Positions 35,167 to 46,400 of a stretch of DNA of 64,000 nucleotides are shown in pieces. How positions within the stretch are numbered: position 1 is the stretch's first letter; every line of letters begins with the position of its first letter. This stretch comes from an uncultured Muribaculaceae bacterium (GTDB lineage: Bacteria > Bacillota_I > Bacilli_A > RF39 > UBA660), in NCBI GenBank assembly GCA_964407685.1, contig CAYOWI010000003.1, positions 1,681 to 65,680 of the forward strand, given 5' to 3'. Below the pieces are notes generated by a model. It worked only from the letters and a program-made list of their open reading frames with translations, had not been told where the DNA came from and searched no databases. A program made the position numbers and the translations under genes.

Positions 35167-36936
35167 TCATTTTATAGAGCATAATATAAATTCAGAACCA
35201 TACATTTCTTCTTGTTCCTCTAACCAATCAAATACATTATCTAAACTAACATTTGATATATTTATACTCTTAAATATCGGATATCTATTATCAATATAAT
35301 CCTTTATTAAAGAATATTTATAATCATTCTTATCATCTGAATTAACAGCAAAATTTAGCAATTCATTTATTTCATTAGTAGATGTAAATTTGACTCTTGT
35401 ATATAATGAAAGCATTTGATTAAATCCTACTTTTTGTTCTCTATTCGTATTATAGTATTTATCAAAAATCGACACTGCATCCTCTTTTTTATCCTTATTA
35501 GAATGAGTATAATGAAATGTTGTAGTTAACTGAGAGTGTCCCATTAGGCGTTTAACATCAGCAGGGGCTAAGTTAGGATTTTCATTCATTTGAATTGTAC
35601 AATAACTATGTCTCAACCCATGTAGAGAAACATTTTTTATATATGGATATTTTTTTCTGAAATCTAACCATTTACTACTAGGTGTATCAGGAAACATAAT
35701 ACCTCCAGTTTTACTTAAAAATAAATTTTTTGGAGGTATATAACCTTTAATTTTTCTTTTAAATCTAGTTATTATTCTTAAACGTAGTTTTAAATATTCC
35801 TTAATAACTTCTGTACAGAAAATTGGAATAGGAATATCACGGACACTGCCTTTTGTTTTAGTTTCCTTCTCTATTACTTTACGTTTTTTTTCGTCCCATA
35901 CAACTGCCCTTCTAATACTAATAACATTATTATTAAAATCTATATCATCAGTATGAAGTCCGATTAATTCTCCTCGTCTTACACCAGTGCATATCGCAAT
36001 AGTAAACAAAGTTTCAGTTAAAATATCTTCAGTTTTTAATAGTTCTAATACTTCTAATAATTCCTCCCTATTATAAGATAATTTTTCTTCTTTAGATACA
36101 CCTGGTGCTTTAACCTTTAAAACTGGATTCTTTTCTATATAGTCCCATTCTTGTGCTTTATTTAATATCTTTCTCAACAAACAATAAATATTATTTATTG
36201 TTGATAATGATAACTTAACTTTATTACCATTTTTATCTGGTCTTAAACTATATTTTTCTTTAAGTGAATTAACTATTCTTTGAACTGTTAATACGCTTAT
36301 TTTATCTAAATATACATTTGCAAGTTCAGGAAGTATATAATTTTTCAAATCTACTTTTCCACTCCTTACTGTTGTAGGGCTAAGTTCCTTTTCTGCATAT
36401 TCTTTATAATAAATTCTTGCAAAATCAATAAACTTAATATTCCTACTATTATTTTTCTTTAACTTTAATTCTGCTAATTTTTTATCTCTTTCCTTTCTTG
36501 ATTGTGCTAATGTTCCCTCAAATACTGCAGAATAATAATCTCCTTTTTTTCCATTAGAGCCTCCTTTTCTAATGAATATTCTATATTTCTTTCCTTTTTC
36601 AATTTCATATATATATTTATCAACTTTTTTTGTATTTGTTATAGTTGTTTTATTATTTGGCTTCTTTGGTTTGTTATTTACTTTCTTAGATTTATCTTTA
36701 TTATAATCTTCCAAAATACAAGTAATTTCACTCTTTTTTTCTAAAAATAAACCATTTTCCTCTAACTTCTTATCTCTTAAAAATATAGCATCTTCAAGTG
36801 ATCCATCTATATATTGATCAAAGTTAATTCTTTTATTGTTTTTTTTATCAACTTTTAAAAATTTAACTCTATATTTATCTTCAGATACATAATAAATATA
36901 TTTTTCTACTCTTTCTTGCATAATTTCTCCGTTCAA
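35167..36936 (-). CDS. int: Tyrosine recombinase/integrase (589 aa, extended N-terminus)
   Basis: Catalytic-domain signatures TGVRRGEL (Arg), HGLRHSYCT, GHSQLTTTFHYTH (His/Tyr). Confidence 0.9.
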   Translation of the reverse strand: MNGEIMQERVEKYIYYVSEDKYRVKFLKVDKKNNKRINFDQYIDGSLEDAIFLRDKKLEENGLFLEKKSEITCILEDYNKDKSKKVNNKPKKPNNKTTITNTKKVDKYIYEIEKGKKYRIFIRKGGSNGKKGDYYSAVFEGTLAQSRKERDKKLAELKLKKNNSRNIKFIDFARIYYKEYAEKELSPTTVRSGKVDLKNYILPELANVYLDKISVLTVQRIVNSLKEKYSLRPDKNGNKVKLSLSTINNIYCLLRKILNKAQEWDYIEKNPVLKVKAPGVSKEEKLSYNREELLEVLELLKTEDILTETLFTIAICTGVRRGELIGLHTDDIDFNNNVISIRRAVVWDEKKRKVIEKETKTKGSVRDIPIPIFCTEVIKEYLKLRLRIITRFKRKIKGYIPPKNLFLSKTGGIMFPDTPSSKWLDFRKKYPYIKNVSLHGLRHSYCTIQMNENPNLAPADVKRLMGHSQLTTTFHYTHSNKDKKEDAVSIFDKYYNTNREQKVGFNQMLSLYTRVKFTSTNEINELLNFAVNSDDKNDYKYSLIKDYIDNRYPIFKSINISNVSLDNVFDWLEEQEEMYGSEFILCSIK

Positions 36937-37256
36937 ATATTGTATTTAATTCTTTCATTTTTTGTCTTAGTTTCTTTATCTAACCATTTATCAATTTCTT
37001 CTTTATTAAACATTCTTCTATTTCCAATAAAAAAGTAAGGTAAGTTATCTTTTTCTATTGCTTTATTTATGTTATATCTAGTAAAAAAAGGATATTTCTC
37101 TATCAGTTCATCTATTGTATAAAGAATTTTATGGTTTTCGTTATTGATTTTTTTTCTATCTTCTTTTTCATCTTCAGAGCGATCAATAAGTATTAAAACT
37201 AATTCTTTTAACGTCATATTCTTTAAAGTTCTATAAAGATCATTCTCCCTTGTCAT
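36933..37256 (-). CDS. xis: Excisionase-type HTH DNA-binding protein
   Basis: YTIDELIEKYPFFTRYNINKAIEKDNLPYFFIGNRRMFNKEEIDKWL (MerR/HTH_17 excisionase pattern). A 4-nt overlap with int. Confidence 0.75.
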   Translation of the reverse strand: MTRENDLYRTLKNMTLKELVLILIDRSEDEKEDRKKINNENHKILYTIDELIEKYPFFTRYNINKAIEKDNLPYFFIGNRRMFNKEEIDKWLDKETKTKNERIKYNI

Positions 37257-37873
37257 CCAAAAAAATCATCCTTTCTATTTATTTTTAATTCATATTCACA
37301 TATTCTATTTTTTAGATTTATTGGTCTACTATTACTTTCCAAAATATCTTTTTTGGTTTTTGAAAAATCTGAACACCAATATATTGCATCAAGCTCATTA
37401 TTAAATGTTTCTGATTCAACTTTATTTCTATACTGTCTTACTGATTTGTATTTATTTTTAAAATGGCAATAATAATTATTAAAAAAGATTCTATTGATAT
37501 TTTTCGATTCATCATAAATTTTCAAAAAATCCCCAATTGAAACTTTAAAAACAATCGGAAATATCCCATCATCAAATATTTTTATTACATTTGTATCTAT
37601 ACTAAAAAAGTCATAATTTTTTTTGTAACATTCCATTATATTTTTAGAATAGATATTTCCACATTTAGGTTTTAAAATAAAACTCATTTCATCATTCGTT
37701 CTTATCAAGTACCAAACTTCATTAAAATCATTATCTATAATTTCATATATTTTTCTTATTACATTAGATTTGTGTAACTCCTTAAGTTCCTTCTCCCATA
37801 TAGTAGGAACTTTACTTATTCCAAAATAATAACTCCACATTACTTCAATTTCTCTTTTTTCCATCTTTATCAC
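37253..37873 (-). CDS. Hypothetical protein (206 aa)
   Basis: ORF coupled to xis by a 4-nt overlap; no motif recognised. Confidence 0.5.
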   Translation of the reverse strand: MIKMEKREIEVMWSYYFGISKVPTIWEKELKELHKSNVIRKIYEIIDNDFNEVWYLIRTNDEMSFILKPKCGNIYSKNIMECYKKNYDFFSIDTNVIKIFDDGIFPIVFKVSIGDFLKIYDESKNINRIFFNNYYCHFKNKYKSVRQYRNKVESETFNNELDAIYWCSDFSKTKKDILESNSRPINLKNRICEYELKINRKDDFFG

Positions 37874-37982
37874 TCCTAATTTTCAAAGTAAGTAATGCAA
37901 TTTATATTTTTATTAAAAAAGGAATCGCATTACAGAAACATAATACTAATTCCATTTCTTTTTTACGAATGTGTAAAATCGT

Positions 37983-38198
37983 TTATTTACCAATTTTTAT
38001 AGATTTGACTTTTTTTATTTTTTTAGCTTTATATTTAAATTCATAAGAACCATCAAAAATGAAGTTTATATCTTTATTACTATTACTATAATTTTTTAGT
38101 AAAGATTTAACTTTTTTTAATGCGTCTTTTTTGCAAGATGCATTTACCATCATATTTGTACTTTGAATAAATTTAACGTTCACTAAATAATTCTTCAT
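37983..38198 (-). CDS. Small hypothetical protein (71 aa), tandem paralog B
   Basis: MKNYLVNVKF...; shares its N-terminal pattern and length with the upstream gene; 4-nt overlap. Confidence 0.45.
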   Translation of the reverse strand: MKNYLVNVKFIQSTNMMVNASCKKDALKKVKSLLKNYSNSNKDINFIFDGSYEFKYKAKKIKKVKSIKIGK

Positions 38199-38419
38199 GC
38201 ACTCACCTTAATAAACTGAATAGATAAATTTTCTTTTTTCTTTGATCTTAGTTCTTCCTTTTGAAGTCTGTATTTTATATTATTACTATTATTAATATTT
38301 AAAATAACATTATTTTCGATCATGTCTTTTACCATGTTAATGGCTGATAGCTCATCATTAGCTATTACTTTAAAATTAATATTCTTACATAATCTAACTT
38401 TTATATTAAAATTTTTCAT
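38195..38419 (-). CDS. Small hypothetical protein (74 aa), tandem paralog A
   Basis: MKNFNIKVRL...INFKVIANDELSAINMVKDMI; the pattern is similar to paralog B. Confidence 0.45.
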   Translation of the reverse strand: MKNFNIKVRLCKNINFKVIANDELSAINMVKDMIENNVILNINNSNNIKYRLQKEELRSKKKENLSIQFIKVSA

Positions 38420-38575
38420 TACAAAATTTCCTTTCTTTTATTTTTATATTGTAATTAATGAGGGTTTTAGTTTACCCACAACTCCCGTGCTAATAGGGAT
38501 TGACTACCTAGCTTTTTTTAAGTGCTAACATATCGGTGATTTTTAACACTGCCAAATTGTCAAAGATCAACCTGT

Positions 38576-38615
38576 AAAAAAAACAGGTAAAAGGAAATAA
38601 TATCCTCTCACCTGT
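38576..38615 (-). terminator. Rho-independent terminator after sigma-like gene 1
   Basis: ACAGGU(38615-38610)...ACCUGU(38588-38583) followed by U7 on the minus strand. Confidence 0.55.
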
Positions 38616-38645
38616 TTCCTCACTAATAAGCACTTTTACGAAGTC

Positions 38646-39116
38646 TTATTTTAAAGTTTCTTTTAATTTTTTTAATGCAATATTTAAAGTGTATTGAATT
38701 GATCTAATATCTACATTTTCTTCATCTGCTATTTGTTTCTGTGTCATATCTTCAAAATAATACTTTTTAATTCTCCTTTTTTGTATTTCTGGAAGTAAAT
38801 CTATCGCTTTCTTTAAATCTTCAAAAGTAGATTTCTGAATGACATAATCTTCTAATCCAATAGACTTATTCAATGCTCTTGCTTCAAGATTATTTTCAGT
38901 TAGTTCAGAATGTTCAATATGACGATCAAATTCATTCATTTCACATATATCATCAAGTTCAAATCCATCCATAACATTAAAAACCACTTCACTTACGTCC
39001 ACCATTCTTAAAATTCCCATACCGTCTTTAAATAAAACTCTAAAGCTATCCTTATCGTCTATATACTCCAATGTATAAGGATTATCATTCTTTTTACGCC
39101 TTTTTGGTCTTTTCAT
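38646..39116 (-). CDS. ICE sigma-70 region-4-like HTH regulator, copy 1 (156 aa)
   Basis: C-terminal region-4 pattern LPEIQKRRIKKYYFEDMTQKQIADEENVDIRSIQYTL..ALKKL. N-terminal RRKKNDNPY and HIEHSELTENNL motifs are typical of the sigma-like proteins of Tn1549/CTn-type ICEs. Confidence 0.7.
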   Translation of the reverse strand: MKRPKRRKKNDNPYTLEYIDDKDSFRVLFKDGMGILRMVDVSEVVFNVMDGFELDDICEMNEFDRHIEHSELTENNLEARALNKSIGLEDYVIQKSTFEDLKKAIDLLPEIQKRRIKKYYFEDMTQKQIADEENVDIRSIQYTLNIALKKLKETLK

Positions 39117-39123
39117 TTGCTAT

Positions 39124-39154
39124 CCTTTCTATTGATTTATTTCAATAGAAAAGG
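39124..39154 (-). promoter_or_regulatory. SD-sequestering hairpin upstream of sigma-like gene 1
   Basis: Minus-strand RNA CCUUUUCUAUUGA-aauaaa-UCAAUAGAAAGG (12 bp plus 1 bulge). The 3' arm contains the SD GAAAGG, 7 nt before ATG 39116. Confidence 0.5.
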
Positions 39155-39181
39155 TGGCCCTCTAGAAAAATAAAAAGGTAC

Positions 39182-39225
39182 AAAAAAAATCCCAGATGGG
39201 ATATTACTAATATCACACCCAGGAT
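39182..39225 (-). terminator. Intrinsic terminator inside the leader of sigma-like gene 1
   Basis: A 16-bp stem (AUCCUGGGUGUGAUAUU-agu-AAUAUCCCAUCUGGGAU, with 3 G-U pairs and 1 mismatch) followed by U8. It lies 27 nt upstream of the SD hairpin. Confidence 0.55.
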
Positions 39226-39407
39226 TTAAAGTTAAAAATACAAATAAAAACCAAAACCCACTAATCATAGCAGCACACCCCATCAATGCCACAACAATTT
39301 ACTGCAATAGTAAAAGTGTTTAGATGTACTGCTAAATATCTAATCCTTATACCTAAAAAATATTATAATTTCCTATTATAAAAGCATTGTCTCCTTTTTT
39401 GCTTGCT

Positions 39408-39436
39408 ATTATATATTTTTATGGTATAAATGTAAA
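39408..39436 (-). promoter_or_regulatory. SigmaA-type promoter for the sigma-like gene 1 leader
   Basis: Minus strand TTTACA(39436-39431)-17 nt-TATAAT(39413-39408). Confidence 0.5.
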
Positions 39437-39513
39437 TGAGAATTTTCTAATATAAAAAAACAACACAAATATAATATTTAAATTATATTTCTTTTTCAAG
39501 TTTAAAATAATAT

Positions 39514-39542
39514 AAAAAAATCTGGTTAAAAATTTAACCAGA
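39514..39542 (-). terminator. Rho-independent terminator of the 39574..39906 gene
   Basis: UCUGGUUAAA/UUUAACCAGA stem followed by U7 on the minus strand. Confidence 0.6.
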
Positions 39543-39573
39543 TTAATCCTATATTGCATATAATTAATTTTAT

Positions 39574-39906
39574 TTAACAATCATTATTTTTTTCAATATT
39601 CTCTCTAACCTTTTCTAGTACTTGATAGTAATCAATTTCTTCTATAATATTACTGGTATATAGCAAGAATTGAGAAATAATATCAATTGCTTCATTTATA
39701 TATAATCTTACATCTATTTCTATATCATTATTAATATTCCTTGGTACACTATACCTTAATAATTTTTCCTTAGTTAACTTTGCTAAATCTCTTTCATTTT
39801 CATCAATTTGCTTTTCAATATTTTTTGTTAATACACCTATTAAATTATTATATTCTTTTTTATTTAACATTAATTTTATTGGTGGTATTCTCTTTGAATA
39901 TGCCAT
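39574..39906 (-). CDS. Hypothetical protein (110 aa)
   Basis: ORF between the two sigma-like genes, with its own terminator. Confidence 0.45.
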   Translation of the reverse strand: MAYSKRIPPIKLMLNKKEYNNLIGVLTKNIEKQIDENERDLAKLTKEKLLRYSVPRNINNDIEIDVRLYINEAIDIISQFLLYTSNIIEEIDYYQVLEKVRENIEKNNDC

Positions 39907-40010
39907 TTTTTATTCTCCTTTTCCGATCAATTTGTTGTGTAACTTTTAGCCATATTTTTTTAAATATAATTATATTTTTGCATTATAGGATAAAAGAGAA
40001 AAAATCCCTT

Positions 40011-40529
40011 TCACTTATTTCCCCACTCATAAAAGAAATTGCAGACACTTTTTTTATTTTTTAATATTTTTTTTAAATTTTTCTTAGCCCTCTCTAAAAT
40101 AATATGTACTGATTGATGAGTACTATTTTCTTCTTTAGCAATTTCAATTTCGTTTTTACCTTCAAAATAATATTTTTTTATTCTTCTCTTTTGAATAATA
40201 GGTAGTTTTTCAATAGCCATATATAGTTCGGAAAAAGCTATTTCTTTAATAACTTGTTCTTCTACACTTTCAACTTTATAATTTGTTCTTTTATATAATC
40301 TCTCATCGTCTAATTCAGAATGCTCTATATGTCTTTCATATTCATGCATTTGTGATATATCAATTAATTCAAAACTATTAAATGCATTATAAACTTCTTC
40401 ACTTATCTCAACTGTTTTATTTTCTTTAATACCATTATTAAAAGAAATAATATATATTTTCTCATTTTTATTATATTGTAATATATAAGGATTATCTCTA
40501 TCCTTTCTTCTTTTTGGATGATTATCCAT
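40011..40529 (-). CDS. ICE sigma-70 region-4-like HTH regulator, copy 2 (172 aa)
   Basis: Paralog of 38646..39116. Shared motifs RRKDRDNPY, ERHIEHSELDDERL, LPIIQKRRIKKYYFEGKNEIEIAKEENSTHQSVHIIL.RAKKNL. Confidence 0.7.
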   Translation of the reverse strand: MDNHPKRRKDRDNPYILQYNKNEKIYIISFNNGIKENKTVEISEEVYNAFNSFELIDISQMHEYERHIEHSELDDERLYKRTNYKVESVEEQVIKEIAFSELYMAIEKLPIIQKRRIKKYYFEGKNEIEIAKEENSTHQSVHIILERAKKNLKKILKNKKSVCNFFYEWGNK

Positions 40530-40534
40530 TTTTT

Positions 40535-40571
40535 CCTCCTATCAATAATTTTTTTAATTATTGATAGGAGG
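40535..40571 (-). promoter_or_regulatory. Perfect 16-bp SD-sequestering hairpin (or operator) upstream of sigma-like gene 2
   Basis: Minus-strand RNA CCUCCUAUCAAUAAUU-aaaaa-AAUUAUUGAUAGGAGG-aaaaa-AUG. The SD AGGAGG is fully paired with the anti-SD CCUCCU. Confidence 0.55.
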
Positions 40572-40597
40572 CGAACGTTCCTTCATCAAAGTGTATG

Positions 40598-40650
40598 AAA
40601 AAAGACTATATTTCATATTTTTTTTAAAACGAAATATAGTCTTTTTTAAT
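40598..40650 (-). terminator. Intrinsic terminator in the leader of sigma-like gene 2
   Basis: AAGACUAUAUUUC/GAAAUAUAGUCUU stem (40598-40647) followed by U6 on the minus strand. It lies 26 nt upstream of the SD hairpin. Confidence 0.55.
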
Positions 40651-40907
40651 TTAATATCAAATAATATTATTATTAGAAAAAAGTAGTATTTCATATTTCG
40701 CAATCCTCAAAATTGCAAATACCATAATTATTGGTAGAGAAAATACTACTTTAGATTCAGTCCAATAAGCATAACTTGTAATATATAACTGAAGAAAGAA
40801 TTTACTTCTATACTACTTATATTAATACTAATTATTACTTAATTTTTAAAACAATGCTACTTACTTTCCCCCATATATAATACATGCATAGGCATTGCTA
40901 CTCCTAC

Positions 40908-40935
40908 ATTATACTACAAAATTCTACATAATCAA
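40908..40935 (-). promoter_or_regulatory. SigmaA-type promoter immediately after the holin stop codon
   Basis: Minus strand TTGATT(40935-40930)-16 nt-TATAAT(40913-40908). Confidence 0.45.
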
Positions 40936-40941
40936 TTAAAT

Positions 40942-41346
40942 TCAGTTATTTTTATCACTCTCTTCAGAATTTAACTTTTCTAATGATTTATATAGAGCTT
41001 TTGGTATTTTTATTCCCATTTCACTACCATTTTCTAAAATAGAAAGCATTTCATTAAAAATAAATGATATTATTACTAATGTTCTTAATCCGCCATTTAT
41101 ATTAAGTAATTGATCTAATAAAACTGATAATGCAATTATACATAAATAGGCAACTTTCTTTATAATTCCTTTAGCACCAATACTACTATTTACCTTATTT
41201 TGAATAAAAGACTTACAAACACCAGTTATATAATCTAGCAACATTAACGCAAGTATTGTTTTTAATAAAAAATCAAAATCACCAAACAAAAATACGAAAA
41301 AAGTTCCAATAGCACTGCTTAATTTAATAATAATACTTTTCATCAT
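40942..41346 (-). CDS. Holin, phage_holin_4_1 (toxin-secretion/phage-lysis, TcdE-type) family
   Basis: Three TM segments. Family pattern LLDYITGVCKSF...NSSIGAKGIIKKVAYL...LLDQ...FIFNEMLSILENGSEMGIKIP. SD AGGAGA precedes ATGATG at 41346/41343. Confidence 0.85.
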   Translation of the reverse strand: MMKSIIIKLSSAIGTFFVFLFGDFDFLLKTILALMLLDYITGVCKSFIQNKVNSSIGAKGIIKKVAYLCIIALSVLLDQLLNINGGLRTLVIISFIFNEMLSILENGSEMGIKIPKALYKSLEKLNSEESDKNN

Positions 41347-41437
41347 ATCATCTCCTTTCAACAATAAATAAAATTTTAAAATTAAATATACATCTAATAT
41401 TTTATTATTACATACATTAACAAATCATATTTCAACA

Positions 41438-42031
41438 TTAAATTTCTAAAATTTGTCCTGGCTTAATTAAATTAGGATTTTCTCCAATAATAGCTTTATT
41501 TTTTTCATAAATTTTATTCCATGTAGTTTCAAATTTTTCTGCTATATCGTATAATGTATCCCCATAAACAACTTTATATCTTATATTTCCTTTTGTTTTA
41601 TTTGGTTGATAATCATAACTATGTGGGTCTTGGTAGTTATCCCCATCACTATCTTTCATTCCTAAATGTAAGTGGATTCCAGTTGCTTTTCCAGTCATAC
41701 CGGTATATCCTAATATGGTTTCTTCATCCACTTTTTCTCCAGTTTTAACACAAATACTATCTAAATGATAGTGTAAAAGTTTTTTATTAATTCTCGGATA
41801 ATTAACCCAAACAAACTTGGCACCATCACTTGCAATCCCACAGCTAATTATTACCCCATCTTCTAATGCATATTGTGGCCATTTTTCTCTATTAGTACCA
41901 TAATCACAACCATAATGATATTTACCAGTAATACCATTTCTTGTAATAATGCTTTTTCTATTTCCGAATGATGATGTTACATACCAATCGTCTCTTTTAA
42001 AGATTTTACTTGCTAATTTCAATTTAATCAC
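41438..42031 (-). CDS. M23 (LytM) metallopeptidase plus C-terminal LysM, no signal peptide
   Basis: HxxxD (HYGCDYG) and HxH (HLHLG) zinc motifs. LysM YKVVYGDTLYDIAEKF...IKPGQILEI. The N-terminus is hydrophilic. Confidence 0.85.
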   Translation of the reverse strand: MIKLKLASKIFKRDDWYVTSSFGNRKSIITRNGITGKYHYGCDYGTNREKWPQYALEDGVIISCGIASDGAKFVWVNYPRINKKLLHYHLDSICVKTGEKVDEETILGYTGMTGKATGIHLHLGMKDSDGDNYQDPHSYDYQPNKTKGNIRYKVVYGDTLYDIAEKFETTWNKIYEKNKAIIGENPNLIKPGQILEI

Positions 42032-42096
42032 CTCTTATCTCTTATTTTAATAATCAAAAAAATCAAATCATAAAACTCTTTTTCAACATTAGCAAT

Positions 42097-42138
42097 ATAA
42101 AAAAAGAGGAATGCATTATTATCAAAATGCATTCCTCT
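42097..42138 (-). terminator. Strong rho-independent terminator after the lipoprotein gene
   Basis: Perfect 13-bp stem AGAGGAATGCATT/AATGCATTCCTCT (42105-42138) followed by U7 on the minus strand. Confidence 0.7.
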
Positions 42139-42161
42139 TTTATAATTTTCTATGGTAATAA

Positions 42162-42731
42162 TTAAGTTTCTACTTCACAAATGGTAGATTCTAAAGAGCA
42201 TTTTACATATTTAATTTCACCAGAGAAATCACCTTTTTCTCCTTCGAAATATATATAACCATTTTGTATTTTATAAATTCTAGCGTTGTATAAATTTACT
42301 TTTGTAGTTAAATCCCTTCTCTGAGTATTTATTCCATCTAAAGTATACTCGTAGATTTTACCACCAGAGCACCTAGAAATATATAATTTATTACCTGAAA
42401 AATAAGTATATTTTTCAGAACTATAAGCATTTGCATTACAAGACTCGTATTCATCTATTTTAATATAATCATTTTCTTTAACTTTCATAAATATACCATC
42501 TTTTATCATTTCACTACCCTCTTGAGAAATATCAGTAACAATATAAATTTCTTTTTCTTTTGTCTTATCACTTATAGTTTCATAAACCATAGATTTAATG
42601 TCTCTATTTTTTAAATCATAATGCTTAATATTTGCATATCTATTTTTATTACATCCAAAAACACAAAAAGTTAAAATAAAAATTAAAATCGCTTTTTTCA
42701 CACATATCACCATAATCATTATATCATACAA
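42162..42731 (-). CDS. Lipoprotein (candidate immunity/accessory protein)
   Basis: Signal peptide KKAILIFILTFCVFGC with a lipobox Cys. It starts 20 nt after the 747-aa gene. Confidence 0.65.
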   Translation of the reverse strand: MYDIMIMVICVKKAILIFILTFCVFGCNKNRYANIKHYDLKNRDIKSMVYETISDKTKEKEIYIVTDISQEGSEMIKDGIFMKVKENDYIKIDEYESCNANAYSSEKYTYFSGNKLYISRCSGGKIYEYTLDGINTQRRDLTTKVNLYNARIYKIQNGYIYFEGEKGDFSGEIKYVKCSLESTICEVET

Positions 42732-42751
42732 TGCAAATTAATTTAATATAA

Positions 42752-44995
42752 TTAATACCATGCACGGTTTACTCCTGAACTAGCATATTCTAGTCCAACG
42801 CATGCATATCCAGAGAAAGTTGTAAAAGTACTACTTCCTTTACGTTTTATTCCATTAATTCGTGTAGCCCACGGTCTTGTCCCTCCTGGATTAACTAAAT
42901 TACTTCGATTTATTCTAATATAATCTCCATTTTGAAGAGTCCCAACATAATTACCATTTGGATCTATGTAAACTACTGGTTTATTAATATAAAAATCACG
43001 ATATGATGAACTATCATAATTATGAAGAATATAACTATCAGTAGAAGGTACATATTCAACGCAAGTAAATGGTTCATGCCCTACTAATATTTGAGCATCA
43101 ACAACATCGTCATTAGCTGGGTCATCTTGCATACCTGCGGGAATATATTGTTCTCTAATATATCCCGTTTTTACATCTGTTCCATCATTAAACATAACCT
43201 TATGAACATTATCATTTTGAGGTTGCTCAACCGCATATCTTACATACATATCATGTGGTCTTATATATCCAATAATATTACCAGCTGGATTATATTCAAA
43301 CACTTCTGGTTCAGAAGGTAAATTAATCTCTTTTCTTTCATATACTGGAACCGATTCTTGAGTCATATTGATTAAAATTCTACAATGTCTTTCTAATGTG
43401 TGTGAATTATCATTAGTTTTAGAATATTCTTGAGATATTCCACTATATTGCCCTGAATATCCGTTTTTATCTATTTCTATAGATTGACCATTTGAAGAAA
43501 TTGTCGTCGTTGCAAACTGATCTAATGCCCAATTATCTGGTATAGAAAATCCAAGGTTTCCACTATAACCAGTAGACATATCGCTAACAAAACTACTACA
43601 AGCATATCCAGCTTTGCATACTCTAGAACATACATTTCTAGTTCCATAAACCCCAATCCTATATTTTGCTTTACCATTGAAAACCAAAGATTTACGAACA
43701 GCTTCAAAATAAGGAAGTATATTATTTGTAATTTCAGTATCTGTTGCATCATAATCTACCGCAAAATAAATAATTGTACCAAACTGTAATTGTAAATTAT
43801 CAGCTGCTATTGCCGCTGCCGATGCATCTGTTGTTCCTTGCGTCGCATTAAAATATGAAAGATATGTCCCAGAAGTTTGGAATATAGGGAATAATCTAAT
43901 TCCATTTCCAAACAATACTTGAATTTCACTTGAGGTTATTTTTTTATCTTTCCCTCCAGAAGCATTTGTTAAATATCTTGCAATATATCTATAATTTTTA
44001 TTTAATAATACCTGAACATTACTGCTATTAATTTTAGTCATACAGTCGCAGGCAATAGCATTTCTATCTGTGTCACCACAACTTACTAATAAAGATAACC
44101 ATGTAGTATAATCAAGATTCCCTGTTTGTGGTATTCCATACTTTGATTGAAATGCTTGAATAACACTTACTGTTAGATTCGATGTTATATCTCCATTACC
44201 AAATCCATTAAAATATAAAGCAATATTAGCTATTTTTTTGAATTTATTAATTTTATCGGAACTATAATTTTGTCCACTATAATTAGTTCCAGAATATGAA
44301 CCATTTGATAAAATTGTTGGTAAACAATTTTTTGTTGATGGGCCACAATTTCCATTAGCAACAGAAGTCGGCATTCCCTCTTCCGCTTGAACCGCATATA
44401 GTACCGCTTTACTTGTATTTCTTCCATATATTCCGTCGCACGGTGATAGTCCAATATATGCTTCATAATTAGCATTCAAATATCTTTGCATGGAAATTAT
44501 GTTTTGTATTCTCTCGGATTGATCATATGAATAAAAATAATCCATAGACATTAAAGCCTTCATAACATTAAGTGTTACAGTTGAAGAAGATGCATTAATT
44601 CCAGCATCTTGTTTTAGTTTTTTTATAGCAGAACCTGTTCCTGAATAAAAATTACATGTTGGAGCTCCAGTTCCTATAGAATATCCTTTACATAATAAGC
44701 CACCTTGAATAATTCCATAAATATTTTTCTTTGTCTCATCATCGTCAGCCTGTTGCTGAACACCATTTGGATACTTATTATTAAACGCTGATATTGTACC
44801 AGCACCAAAATTATCTGCTGTTGCAGTAATACCTAATTCAATTTGTAATGCATGAAGCAATGCATAAATTGTAGGCCACCCTGTTTTTCCGTTTTCTTGT
44901 ATTTCAGTATATCCAGTTTTACCTCGATATGTTTCATTAACCCACTCTTGTACTGCGAGTACATATGGATCTCCAGTTGTAGCTTTTTCAGCCAT
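42752..44995 (-). CDS. 747-aa leaderless multidomain cell-wall protein: PG-binding repeats, a DUF1906/Rv2525c-like glycoside-hydrolase-like domain and an unknown ~200-aa C-terminal region
   Basis: Starts MAEKATTGDPYVLAVQEWVN with no signal peptide or TM. PG_binding_1-type repeat VSVIQAFQSKYGIPQTGNLDYTTWLSLL. GH-like core YRYIARYLTN..KKITSSE..GIRLFPIFQ...IIYFAVDYD...RIGVYGTRNVC...DNWALDQF. Confidence 0.75.
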   Translation of the reverse strand: MAEKATTGDPYVLAVQEWVNETYRGKTGYTEIQENGKTGWPTIYALLHALQIELGITATADNFGAGTISAFNNKYPNGVQQQADDDETKKNIYGIIQGGLLCKGYSIGTGAPTCNFYSGTGSAIKKLKQDAGINASSSTVTLNVMKALMSMDYFYSYDQSERIQNIISMQRYLNANYEAYIGLSPCDGIYGRNTSKAVLYAVQAEEGMPTSVANGNCGPSTKNCLPTILSNGSYSGTNYSGQNYSSDKINKFKKIANIALYFNGFGNGDITSNLTVSVIQAFQSKYGIPQTGNLDYTTWLSLLVSCGDTDRNAIACDCMTKINSSNVQVLLNKNYRYIARYLTNASGGKDKKITSSEIQVLFGNGIRLFPIFQTSGTYLSYFNATQGTTDASAAAIAADNLQLQFGTIIYFAVDYDATDTEITNNILPYFEAVRKSLVFNGKAKYRIGVYGTRNVCSRVCKAGYACSSFVSDMSTGYSGNLGFSIPDNWALDQFATTTISSNGQSIEIDKNGYSGQYSGISQEYSKTNDNSHTLERHCRILINMTQESVPVYERKEINLPSEPEVFEYNPAGNIIGYIRPHDMYVRYAVEQPQNDNVHKVMFNDGTDVKTGYIREQYIPAGMQDDPANDDVVDAQILVGHEPFTCVEYVPSTDSYILHNYDSSSYRDFYINKPVVYIDPNGNYVGTLQNGDYIRINRSNLVNPGGTRPWATRINGIKRKGSSTFTTFSGYACVGLEYASSGVNRAWY

Positions 44996-45073
44996 ATTTT
45001 TTCATCTCCTTTAGTATTAAAATAATCATTTAATATATAGAAAAATCAAAAATACCGTATTTAAATCCGTTCT

Positions 45074-45144
45074 AATTCACAATATTAAATTAATTGACAA
45101 TTAAATTTATGAACATGCGATTAATGTACCTTATTGTCCGGACA
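45074..45144 (-). promoter_or_regulatory. Conserved cargo-operon control module, copy A
   Basis: 28-nt box AATTCACAATATTAAATTAATTGACAAT (45074-45101; contains the 11-bp palindrome AATTGACAATT, 45092-45102), then 33 nt, then the perfect palindrome TGTCCGGACA (45135-45144). The box starts 78 nt upstream of ATG 44995. It is near-identical to copy B. Confidence 0.6.
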
Positions 45145-45332
45145 TATAAAGTTATATTAATATACTTTTATAAATAAAAAACAGTGCTAGTCAATTAAAA
45201 CGTAAGTTTAAATATTAACTAACACCGCATATTCACCATATCTATTTGTCAATATAATGATATAATATTTTTCATATATAAGTCAATCTTTTTTTATATT
45301 TTTTAATAATATTTTTTCACATAATTAAATCA

Positions 45333-46400
45333 TCAACTATCTTTAATCATTTTTATAATAGTTATTCGTTTTATTTTAATATATATTAAAGTAACAACTA
45401 ATACAAGCATAAGTAAAATAGCAAAAAAATTTTTCATTATTATAATAAAGTCAAATAAATTTTTTATATCTAACAATGAAATAAATAATAAATTTATAAA
45501 CCCAATAGTAATAGTTGAAATTATCAAGGAAAACAACAGTATAAAAATAAAGTATGATAATATCAAAATTAAAATAAATATATTACTATATCCAAATGTT
45601 TTTAAGAGCGCTATACTATAGCTTTTTTCTGCAATGTTTGAGAATAATAAAAATAAAAACATTAACAATAAAGTTATATAACATAATAAGAAAAATCCTC
45701 TTAAAATATTATTAATATCCTTGTATGTTTGTACCTCATTTTGATATGAATCATCGATAAATTCTATTGAACAATCATTATCTTTTAATTTTTTTTCAAC
45801 TTTTTTATAACTAGACCTATTATTAATTAATACAATATATCTATTACTATTTTTAATTAATTTATTGATATTGTTATCGTTAGATATATATATGTAGTAA
45901 TTATCACTCCCGGTATTAGAATATACTCCAACAATGGTTAATTCTATACTTTGATTCTCTATAATAACTTTTATTTTTTTATTTATAACATCTTCTATAT
46001 TTTTATTATTTTTACTTAAAAATTTTTCCGAAACAATGGCTTCATTATATCCTAGATTATTAATTTTTCCTTTAACTAAATTTAATTTAATTAAGGGGTT
46101 TATAAATTTAAAACTACATTTATCAAATTTATTACATTTAGCATAAAATGAGCCTGTATTATAAGATACATCTTGAACATTCGGAAGGGATTTAATTAAT
46201 TTAGATTTATCCGTCCCATCATTACTAATAACATACATTGCTCTATTCTCAATTTTATTTATTATTTGTATATCTACTTTCCTTTCAGTTGAATTTATAA
46301 TTAATGCTATAATATTTATTACAAAAATCATGAAAGAGAATAATAAAATATAATATTTAGCTTTATCTGTTTTAATAGTTTTAAATAATAAATTAAACAT
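45333..46400 (-). CDS. ABC transporter permease, FtsX/MacB-like (355 aa)
   Basis: N-terminal TM, a ~200-aa extracytoplasmic domain and three C-terminal TMs (FtsX topology). Confidence 0.7.
   Translation of the reverse strand: MFNLLFKTIKTDKAKYYILLFSFMIFVINIIALIINSTERKVDIQIINKIENRAMYVISNDGTDKSKLIKSLPNVQDVSYNTGSFYAKCNKFDKCSFKFINPLIKLNLVKGKINNLGYNEAIVSEKFLSKNNKNIEDVINKKIKVIIENQSIELTIVGVYSNTGSDNYYIYISNDNNINKLIKNSNRYIVLINNRSSYKKVEKKLKDNDCSIEFIDDSYQNEVQTYKDINNILRGFFLLCYITLLLMFLFLLFSNIAEKSYSIALLKTFGYSNIFILILILSYFIFILLFSLIISTITIGFINLLFISLLDIKNLFDFIIIMKNFFAILLMLVLVVTLIYIKIKRITIIKMIKDS

Follow-up and report, generated by a model that had tools for sequence, protein, structure and literature searches.

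The leader of sigma-like gene 2 and its Shine-Dalgarno hairpin

The stretch of contig CAYOWI010000003.1 analyzed here (the window: 64 kb, 27.5% G+C) contains, at positions 40530-40935, the leader of a gene for a small sigma-like protein, which we term sigma-like gene 2. All leader and gene coordinates given below are on the minus strand. Farther down that strand lie genes for a MOBP relaxase, VirD4, PrgI, a VirB4-like protein and CHAP, a conjugation gene set that we take to fit a Tn1549-like integrative and conjugative element (ICE). Gene 2 and its paralog, gene 1, code for proteins that are 45% identical to each other and contain a sigma-70 region 4 helix-turn-helix (HTH) domain and little else that is recognizable (Pfam Sigma70_r4_2, with similarity to region 4 of FliA); a sequence search of the PDB with the sigma-like protein returned similarity to sigma region 4 only. 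The leader combines Shine-Dalgarno (SD) sequences, hairpins and a short upstream open reading frame (uORF), which are arranged as follows, from the gene outward:

40011..40529 (-): sigma-like gene 2, 172 amino acids, sigma-70 region 4 HTH at the C-terminus (sequence and profile comparison)
40535..40571 (-): anti-SD/SD hairpin of gene 2, 16 bp, perfect, with a 5-nt loop (sequence, fold and homolog covariation)
40554..40694 (-): leader uORF, 46 codons plus TAA, MKYYFFLIIILFDIKLKKTIFRFKKNMKYSLFSYTLMKERSPPINN* (open frame; homolog leaders)
40566..40577 (-): CGT TCG CCT CCT, Arg-Ser-Pro-Pro, a RAPP-like arrest motif (homologs and literature)
40598..40647 (-): intrinsic terminator T1, a hairpin plus U6 inside the uORF, its U-tract read as Leu-Phe-Ser (fold; homologs)
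40680..40692 (-): 3' arm of a long-range helix (GAAAUACUACUUU), over uORF codons 2-5 and the final base of its start codon (G 40692)
40704..40708 (-): GAGGA SD of the uORF, in the loop of a small hairpin GCAAU...AUUGC, 9 nt from ATG 40694
40740..40752 (-): 5' arm of the long-range helix (AAAGUAGUAUUUU) (fold; homolog pairing)
40908..40935 (-): promoter-like TTGATT-16-TATAAT, candidate start of the leader transcript, directly after the holin stop codon

Directly upstream of gene 2 the RNA forms a hairpin with a 5' arm CCUCCUAUCAAUAAUU (40571-40556), an AAAAA loop and a 3' arm AAUUAUUGAUAGGAGG (40550-40535), followed by AAAAA-AUG (40529). It is complementary at 16 of 16 positions and folds with a minimum free energy (MFE) of -22.4 kcal/mol, with the AGGAGG SD (40540-40535) entirely paired, just as a sequence-only reading of this DNA had described it. 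Perfect hairpins of at least 14 bp are found at only three loci in the window, while 30 dinucleotide shuffles of the window yielded 0.03 hairpins of 14 bp or more and none that reached 16 bp. The leader of gene 2 taken as a whole also folds much better than its shuffles (z = -6.3).

To place these structures in an evolutionary setting, a profile made from 28 homologs was used to collect 80 loci from species-representative genomes, mostly gut metagenome-assembled genomes (MAGs) labelled Bacilli, Tenericutes or Clostridia. These loci supplied 63 distinct leaders, both window copies counted, and an independent scan of metagenome contigs added 45 more, for a total of 108. On these leaders we computed the structures and how far they are conserved and covary, the signature of coding in the uORF, the conservation of the RxPP peptide and the fixed overlap of RxPP with the anti-SD. 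The start of gene 2 at ATG 40529 is supported by conservation of the N-terminus across the 28 homologs. Almost all leaders share one series of elements: a strong hairpin with a U-run, a spacer of 15-63 nt, a conserved block ending in CCNCC, the SD hairpin and the start codon.

The sequence of the SD hairpin varies across these homologs while its form is constant; the length of the loop varies too. The SD is paired in the MFE fold of 57 of the 63 leaders. RNAalifold, run on a MAFFT alignment of 55 hairpin regions, returned no structure because the registers of the arms differ among subgroups; conservation was scored instead on an explicit structure and on per-sequence folds. In the resulting alignment of 55 leaders, 85% of the cells pair, versus 35-52% when the partners are slid, and double compensatory changes are seen at all ten of the ten upper-stem pairs—values that none of 500 shuffles reached. 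The hairpin recurs, with compensatory changes, in about 100 distinct homologs; on this point and on the conserved start codon, the two conditions under which the earlier reading would have failed came out in its favor. The pairing also has a strand preference, with 100 G-U pairs on the sense strand versus 56 on the antisense strand, and the sense fold is the more stable one in 54 of the 63 leaders. In the homologous leaders the SD is always the end of the 3' arm, and the start of the 5' arm always falls in two proline codons. Hence, the SD hairpin of the sigma-like gene is real, non-random and conserved.

A leader peptide ending in RxPP

The central element of the leader, missed in the earlier reading, is a conserved uORF (40694-40554) that spans the terminator and ends in R-S-P-P. 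Its peptide begins MKYYFF and ends MKERSPPINN; the two proline codons are the first 6 nt of the anti-SD arm, and the stop codon overlaps the last base of the hairpin 5' arm and the first two bases of the loop. A uORF of about 45-70 codons, running through an intrinsic terminator, is common to the 108 distinct leaders. Despite an AT-rich and stop-rich composition, the Pro-Pro frame of the 63 leaders extends 16-85 codons upstream without a stop, versus about 1-10 codons for the other two frames, and the same open frame recurs in the 45 further metagenome leaders. In most leaders the frame is headed by a strong SD and an ATG, many with GGAGG or AGGAG placed 6-10 nt ahead of it, and the uORF of one homologous locus (L085) was called independently by a gene finder. 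The peptides have a median length of 57 amino acids, with 3-19 residues (median 9) after the motif, and matched no Pfam family.

The motif itself is strikingly uniform. Among 60 distinct peptides, it is preceded by Cys in 36 and Ile in 11, and then reads Arg (58; one His, one Lys), Ser (35), Gly (13), Asp (6) or Ala (6), and two prolines in all 60. R-[S/G/A/D]-P-P is found in 102 of the 108 distinct leaders, the rest comprising one HSPP, one KDPP, two KSPP and two without the motif; the 45 new metagenome leaders, taken by themselves, have 41 RxPP, two KSPP, one point-mutated version and one without the motif. The arginine is specified by AGA (33), CGT (19), AGG (4) or CGA (3), and the serine by AGT/AGC in some leaders and TCG/TCA/TCT in others, as read from the sequences. 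Both residues are thus drawn from both of their codon families, by switches of two or three bases, which only selection on the amino acid can explain. Going by these codons, selection acts on the RxPP peptide and not on a DNA motif. Two further readings of the block upstream of CCNCC, as a promoter or extracytoplasmic function (ECF)-type -10 element and as an anti-anti-SD, were rejected, the alternation of AGA with CGT and of AGT with TCG being that of codons. No R[SGAD]PP occurs outside the uORFs in 117,093 residues of other ORFs at these loci, although a depletion of RxPP from their proteome could not be shown, as only 0.5 occurrences were expected.

Such a C-terminus has clear precedents. 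The arrest peptides ApdA, ApdP and SecM have R-A-P-P, R-G-P-P or R-A-G-P as their core, in which the arginine is irreplaceable, while replacement of the alanine by glycine leaves full or greater activity and replacement by serine, aspartate or proline partial activity (PMC12992588). The residues seen here at x (S, G, A and D) fall within this experimentally permissive set. A ribosome in the RAPP-type stall has the third codon of the motif in its P site and the fourth codon in its A site, the RAPP/RGPP arrest is refractory to elongation factor P (EF-P), and RxPP tetrapeptides, including RSPP and RDPP, are among the most depleted ones, particularly in Bacillota (PMC12992588). The arrest acts at the peptidyl-transferase center of ribosomes from Bacillus subtilis as well as from Escherichia coli (PMC10951233). 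A transmembrane (TM)-like segment at least 20 amino acids from the P site is seen in only six of 62 peptides here; the gene 1 peptide has one and that of gene 2 is borderline. The scarcity of such N-terminal segments indicates that these leader peptides are not classic substrates for monitoring Sec or YidC.

The uORF reads straight through the terminator. In the window, T1 has a stem GACUAUAUUUC/GAAAUAUAGUC, lengthened by A/U pairs and followed by U6 at 40603-40598, and it stands 26 nt upstream of the SD hairpin; this is again as the earlier reading had it. An equivalent (a hairpin, median -20.9 kcal/mol, with a U-run of at least five U) lies inside the uORF in 62 of the 63 leaders, 15-63 nt upstream of the Pro-Pro codons, its sequence variable and its structure kept, with a U-tract that encodes Phe.

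The same reading had placed a second terminator at about 40755-40672. In the window there is indeed a stem with a U6 (outer stem 40752-40740/40692-40680), but its counterpart in the homologs is a long-range helix to the start of the uORF, with no U-tract after it. This helix joins a hairpin loop (GUAGUAUU, or GCAGUAC in the subgroup of gene 1) to the first codons or the ribosome-binding site (RBS) of the uORF; in 22 of 62 leaders the GUAGUAUU/AAUACUAC pairing is 8-9 bp or longer and shows compensatory changes, and an independent RNAalifold prediction agrees. It probably limits initiation at the uORF. The N-terminal "KYY" of the leader peptide, which we had entertained as a peptide motif, was rejected in favor of this RNA helix, with which the upstream loop covaries.

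Several other elements were seen in this upstream part. Motifs like (A)GUAGUA or GCAGUA occur in several copies upstream of the uORF, in the window (40760-40900, -) and in six homologous loci (L001, L013, L026, L055, L058 and L076); the copies are about 10 nt apart in the window, and such motifs often stand in hairpin loops. They could be alternative partners of the UACUAC arm or protein-binding sites. About 100-150 nt upstream of the uORF start, L027 and L038 (L032 and L063 are similar) have an additional switch-like pair of mutually exclusive helices, UAGAAAU...AUUUUCUA versus AGCAGUAA...UUGCUGCU; in L027 and L038 a U8 tract follows the second helix, which would make it a third terminator tier in some leaders. 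At 40857-40895 (-) the window has a mini-ORF, MPMHVLYMGESK*, with AGGAG (40905-40901) ahead of it. The letters around its start, GGAG-N-ATGCCTATG, are like those at which the uORFs of homologs such as L027 begin. The mini-ORF, which is not conserved in a variant copy of the element (L092), may be the vestige of an ancestral uORF start. The promoter-like TTGATT-16-TATAAT (40935-40908) matches the consensus at 10 of 12 positions, and since 42 such matches were found in the region versus a shuffle expectation of 38.4, the site cannot be validated. In two homologous loci, L021 and L062, the RxPP uORF has no stop ahead of the sigma-like ORF and lies in the same frame (frames of 260 and 215 amino acids), where read-through would yield an N-terminally extended regulator.

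The leader of gene 1 (39117-39436) has the same architecture, with a TM-like N-terminus of its uORF:

38646..39116 (-): sigma-like gene 1, 156 amino acids, paralog of gene 2
39124..39154 (-): anti-SD/SD hairpin of gene 1 (CCUUUUCUAUUGA / UCAAUAGAAAGG), with the RGPP codons at 39163-39152
39137..39283 (-): leader uORF of gene 1 (...FSRGPPFLLK*), with in-frame starts at ATG 39283 or 39268 and the stop in the hairpin loop
39182..39227 (-): terminator inside the uORF (AAAUCCUGGG...CCCAUCUGGGAUUU plus U8)

This leader also has a near-consensus, promoter-like TTTACA-17-TATAAT (39436-39408, 11 of 12 positions). By their shared layout these are two tandem regulators, each with its own putative arrest-type leader. 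In the variant copy, L092, GGG has become GCA by two substitutions, turning RGPP into RAPP, and a synonymous CCT to CCC change breaks a base pair with the proline kept.

The proposed switch and the alternatives

These features bear out the earlier view of the leader as a regulatory device for the sigma-like gene upstream of xis and the integrase gene. We consider it fairly probable, on the analysis as a whole, that 40530-40935 is the leader of a two-lock leader-peptide switch, which would gate the sigma-like regulator, in the regulatory and recombination end of the ICE, through RxPP arrest. The first lock would be transcriptional: the leader RNA bears the 46-codon uORF (40694-40554), and the terminator at 40647-40598 would end most transcripts unless a ribosome on the uORF closely trails the RNA polymerase. 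The second would be translational, with the AGGAGG SD of the sigma-like gene held in the 16-bp hairpin, the 5' arm of which starts with the Pro-Pro codons of the C-terminal Arg-Ser-Pro-Pro. By analogy to the RAPP, RGPP and RAGP arrest peptides, the ribosome would arrest with its P site on the first of these codons and its A site on the second, so that its mRNA channel (about +12 to +15 nt) would take up essentially the entire 5' arm. The SD, 31-36 nt past the first base of the P-site codon, would then be single-stranded for as long as the arrest lasts, allowing other ribosomes to initiate at AUG 40529. Upstream, the long-range helix (40752-40740 with 40692-40680) over the early uORF codons probably curbs initiation at the uORF. 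In this scheme we infer three processes, namely arrest, unmasking of the SD and ribosome-dependent read-through of the terminator, and suppose further that the sigma-like protein would activate xis, int and transfer.

The geometry of the leaders is consistent with this scheme. Counted from the first nucleotide of the P-site proline codon, the partners of the SD are 0-11 nt away, and hence within the mRNA channel of a ribosome stalled at that codon. The main AUG is 38-57 nt from the same nucleotide (42 nt in gene 2) and in no leader any closer, which leaves space for a 30S subunit beside the stalled ribosome, going by footprint sizes. In SecM-type arrest, the stalled ribosome likewise opens a stem-loop that hides a downstream SD (PMC10987492).

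Several points count against a switch of this kind. His or Lys replaces the arginine in four of the 108 leaders and the motif is missing in two, and in L021 and L062 the uORF is fused in frame to the sigma-like ORF. As CCNCC is also needed as the anti-SD, only R and x offer independent evidence. The usual release by pulling force has no obvious source, TM-like N-termini being few. Suppression of the terminator requires a tight coupling of transcription and translation, which to our knowledge is not the norm in Bacillota. RSPP, the commonest motif here, is only partially permissive in ApdA and ApdP, and the arrest motif depends on a supportive upstream nascent chain (PMC12992588); the nascent-chain context here is F-rich and Cys/Ile-ended.

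A more specific version of the switch, which we put forward tentatively and with some doubt, is that the RxPP leader might be a cytosolic sensor of the state of translation that times the switch-on of the conjugative element, and that, as it lacks a secretion signal, its arrest would be set or released by something other than the pulling of Sec or YidC. Candidate signals would include the status of Pro-tRNA, of EF-P or of ABCF proteins, ribosome-targeting antibiotics, and the coupling of ribosome and polymerase as read by the in-ORF terminator. The upstream GUAGUA-loop domain would, under such a sensor, be a further undescribed riboregulator of uORF initiation.

Turning to explanations without programmed arrest, plain translational coupling would have any ribosome that reads the uORF briefly melt the hairpin and terminate in it or close by, so that initiation or reinitiation could follow at AUG 40529, with RxPP at most a slow spot. 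The placement of the uORF stop in the hairpin loop in both window copies fits such a mechanism, as does the merely partial permissiveness of RSPP, and a known arrest peptide retained some induction, via transient unwinding, in mutants that do not arrest (PMC10987492). Yet coupling leaves unexplained why the near-invariant arginine comes from both codon families and why x is limited to S, G, A or D; moreover, the stop differs widely in position, between -33 and beyond +9 as counted from the main start, unlike what is seen in termination-reinitiation coupling. We therefore regard it as unlikely.

The sequence-only reading had instead seen the leader as a conduit for read-through or antitermination from the holin/M23 operon, and had thereby linked the regulator to the expression of this cargo; some trans-acting factor (a protein, a small RNA or RNase III) would then open the hairpin. 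The stretch from the holin stop codon (40942) to the leader has no predicted terminator, and there is a precedent in Tn916, where read-through from tet(M) feeds the orf7/orf8 cascade (PMC5812530). However, the linkage to holin and M23 is not a feature of the family: the leader is an autonomous module behind many different genes, its upstream neighbor in the homologs being a divergent XRE-type HTH gene (often so), a signal peptidase or a response regulator. It also has its own SD-led uORF, the conserved RxPP coding signal is ignored by this explanation, and neither a candidate trans factor nor a binding motif for one was identified. All this makes a conduit improbable.

Fold-back insulation of the type known from IS10 would have the terminator and hairpin silence transcripts from outside, with a native promoter between them giving an mRNA that lacks the anti-SD. 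Such an arrangement would shield a master regulator from outside transcription and could account for the conserved block between terminator and hairpin; but the U-tract is only 15-63 nt from the proline codons, no conserved -35/-10 pair lies between the two structures, and the block alternates AGA with CGT and AGT with TCG, which differ at every base, so that it is conserved as codons and not as a DNA motif. This leaves fold-back insulation very improbable. Least credible is the idea, also raised in the earlier reading, that the 37-bp palindrome is a DNA operator overlapping the RBS, for which the perfect dyad symmetry of the window copy and the HTH proteins encoded nearby might speak, as it is contradicted by the compensated changes of the arms and varying loop in homologs, the excess of G-U pairs and greater stability on the sense strand, and the invariable anchoring of the arms in the Pro-Pro codons and the SD.

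Element context, known systems and implications

The sigma-like genes are placed between cargo genes and the recombination genes. The cargo includes genes for a holin, an M23/LysM peptidase, an Rv2525c-like glycoside hydrolase-like protein that carries a peptidoglycan-binding domain, and the ATPase of an ABC transporter. On the other side, downstream of gene 1 and a few small ORFs, are:

36933-37256 (-): xis
35167-36936 (-): tyrosine integrase gene, after xis

In homologs the layout recurs: a leader of about 670 nt separates a divergent XRE HTH gene from the sigma-like gene, which is followed, after a gap of about 460 nt, by small genes, xis and the integrase gene. Just past gene 1, ahead of the small ORFs toward xis and int, the window has a terminator-like structure (AAACAGGU...ACCUGUUUUUUUU) at 38570-38615 (-), which may be another regulated read-through point. 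A further perfect 16-bp hairpin, flanked by an A-run and a U-run as a bidirectional terminator, is found at window positions 42102-42141; it sits between the M23/LysM gene and an upstream 189-amino acid ORF, and so the holin/M23 pair would be transcribed separately from the genes above.

Beyond the sampled family, the distant sigma-like homologs of an Enterococcus faecalis plasmid and a Streptococcus suis element (about 32% identity) have neither uORF nor RxPP, which indicates that the device is clade-specific. A blastn search of plasmids with the leader and both sigma-like genes gave no match. In Clostridioides difficile 630, a table of promoters of transition-phase sigma-factor genes gives for CD1878 ("Sigma factor Tn1549-like") the upstream sequence GGAGG-N7-ATGGCAAAAGAGTATTAT (ATG GCA AAA GAG TAT TAT) (PMC7438776). 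To judge by its letters, this looks like an SD-led ORF start with a (K/E)YY arm; the C. difficile element CTn5 may thus carry the same leader, which would give a tractable host.

Among known systems, the closest in form are the RAPP-like peptides (ApdA, ApdP, ApcA, the RAGP of SecM, CruR and the RAPP/RGPP uORFs of Streptomyces lividans, two of them ahead of ECF sigma genes). According to a 2025 survey, uORFs with RAPP/RGPP stand ahead of diverse genes, those for ECF sigma factors in Streptomyces among them, but are largely absent from Bacillota. Shared with these are the small co-directional uORF, a C-terminal R-[A/G/S/D]-P-P core that follows a variable sequence and stands 3-19 residues before the stop, and a downstream SD in a stem-loop that a motif-stalled ribosome would disrupt (here a prediction). 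Unlike them, the leaders described here come from gut MAGs of Bacillota/Tenericutes type, and their target is a mobile-element regulator rather than Sec/YidC, metal or redox genes; most of the peptides lack both signal peptide and TM segment, their predominant motif is RSPP, the Pro-Pro codons double as part of the anti-SD, and a strong intrinsic terminator is embedded in the uORF.

In gene order, the leaders resemble Tn916 (orf9-orf10-orf7-orf8-xis-int), which also has a divergent XRE-type repressor gene and then a sigma-region-4-like gene upstream of xis and int; the likeness to Orf7 rests on the sigma-70 region 4 HTH and the gene context. Immediately ahead of its sigma-like orf7, Tn916 has a small ORF with no known function, orf10 (PMC7288454), in the position that the uORF occupies here. 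The logic of the first lock is also that proposed for the tet(M) leader of Tn916 (orf12), in which a leader peptide overlaps terminators and the position of the ribosome decides on read-through. However, that attenuator is upstream of tet(M) and not of orf7, for which neither an arrest motif nor an SD hairpin has been described.

Two further systems share parts of the device. In IS10 and IS50, a fold-back hairpin that sequesters the SD guards the transposase gene from read-through transcripts; this works only if an internal promoter makes a native mRNA free of the 5' arm, whereas the leaders here conserve no promoter of that kind and have a coding 5' arm. In erm attenuation (translational in ermC; transcriptional and translational in ermK), a ribosome stalled on the leader remodels the RNA and exposes the SD, and in ermK the stall also overrides leader terminators. 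There, however, the stall needs a macrolide in the tunnel and works through a four-segment relay of alternative pairings, whereas here the ribosome would stand directly on the anti-SD and no drug dependence is implied. The comparison draws in part on PMC5118997.

A permissive Rfam scan of 36000-46000 with 4227 covariance models gave chance-level matches only (E up to 5). The literature searched contained no combination of arrest peptides with ICEs, and an intrinsic terminator embedded in an arrest-peptide uORF is not described in the arrest-peptide literature searched. What appears to be new, as far as the leaders themselves tell, is a putative arrest-type leader of the RxPP kind, in which a terminator is embedded and Pro-Pro codons serve in the anti-SD, and which would gate the regulator of a family of gut conjugative elements.

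The regulation of elements of the Tn1549 and Tn916 types is poorly understood beyond Tn916 itself, and such elements spread resistance and cargo genes in the gut. A compact conserved switch made up of uORF, RxPP, SD hairpin and in-ORF terminator would help to explain their rare activation and its trigger. If the proposed switch is real, it would extend RAPP-like arrest to Bacillota, to the control of mobile elements and to peptides without localization signals, the last of which raises the question of how the arrest is sensed or released. Should the leader prove to be a sensor of translation state, it would be a three-tier RNA-and-peptide device, so far undescribed, that would tie host translational stress directly to horizontal gene transfer in gut Bacillota.

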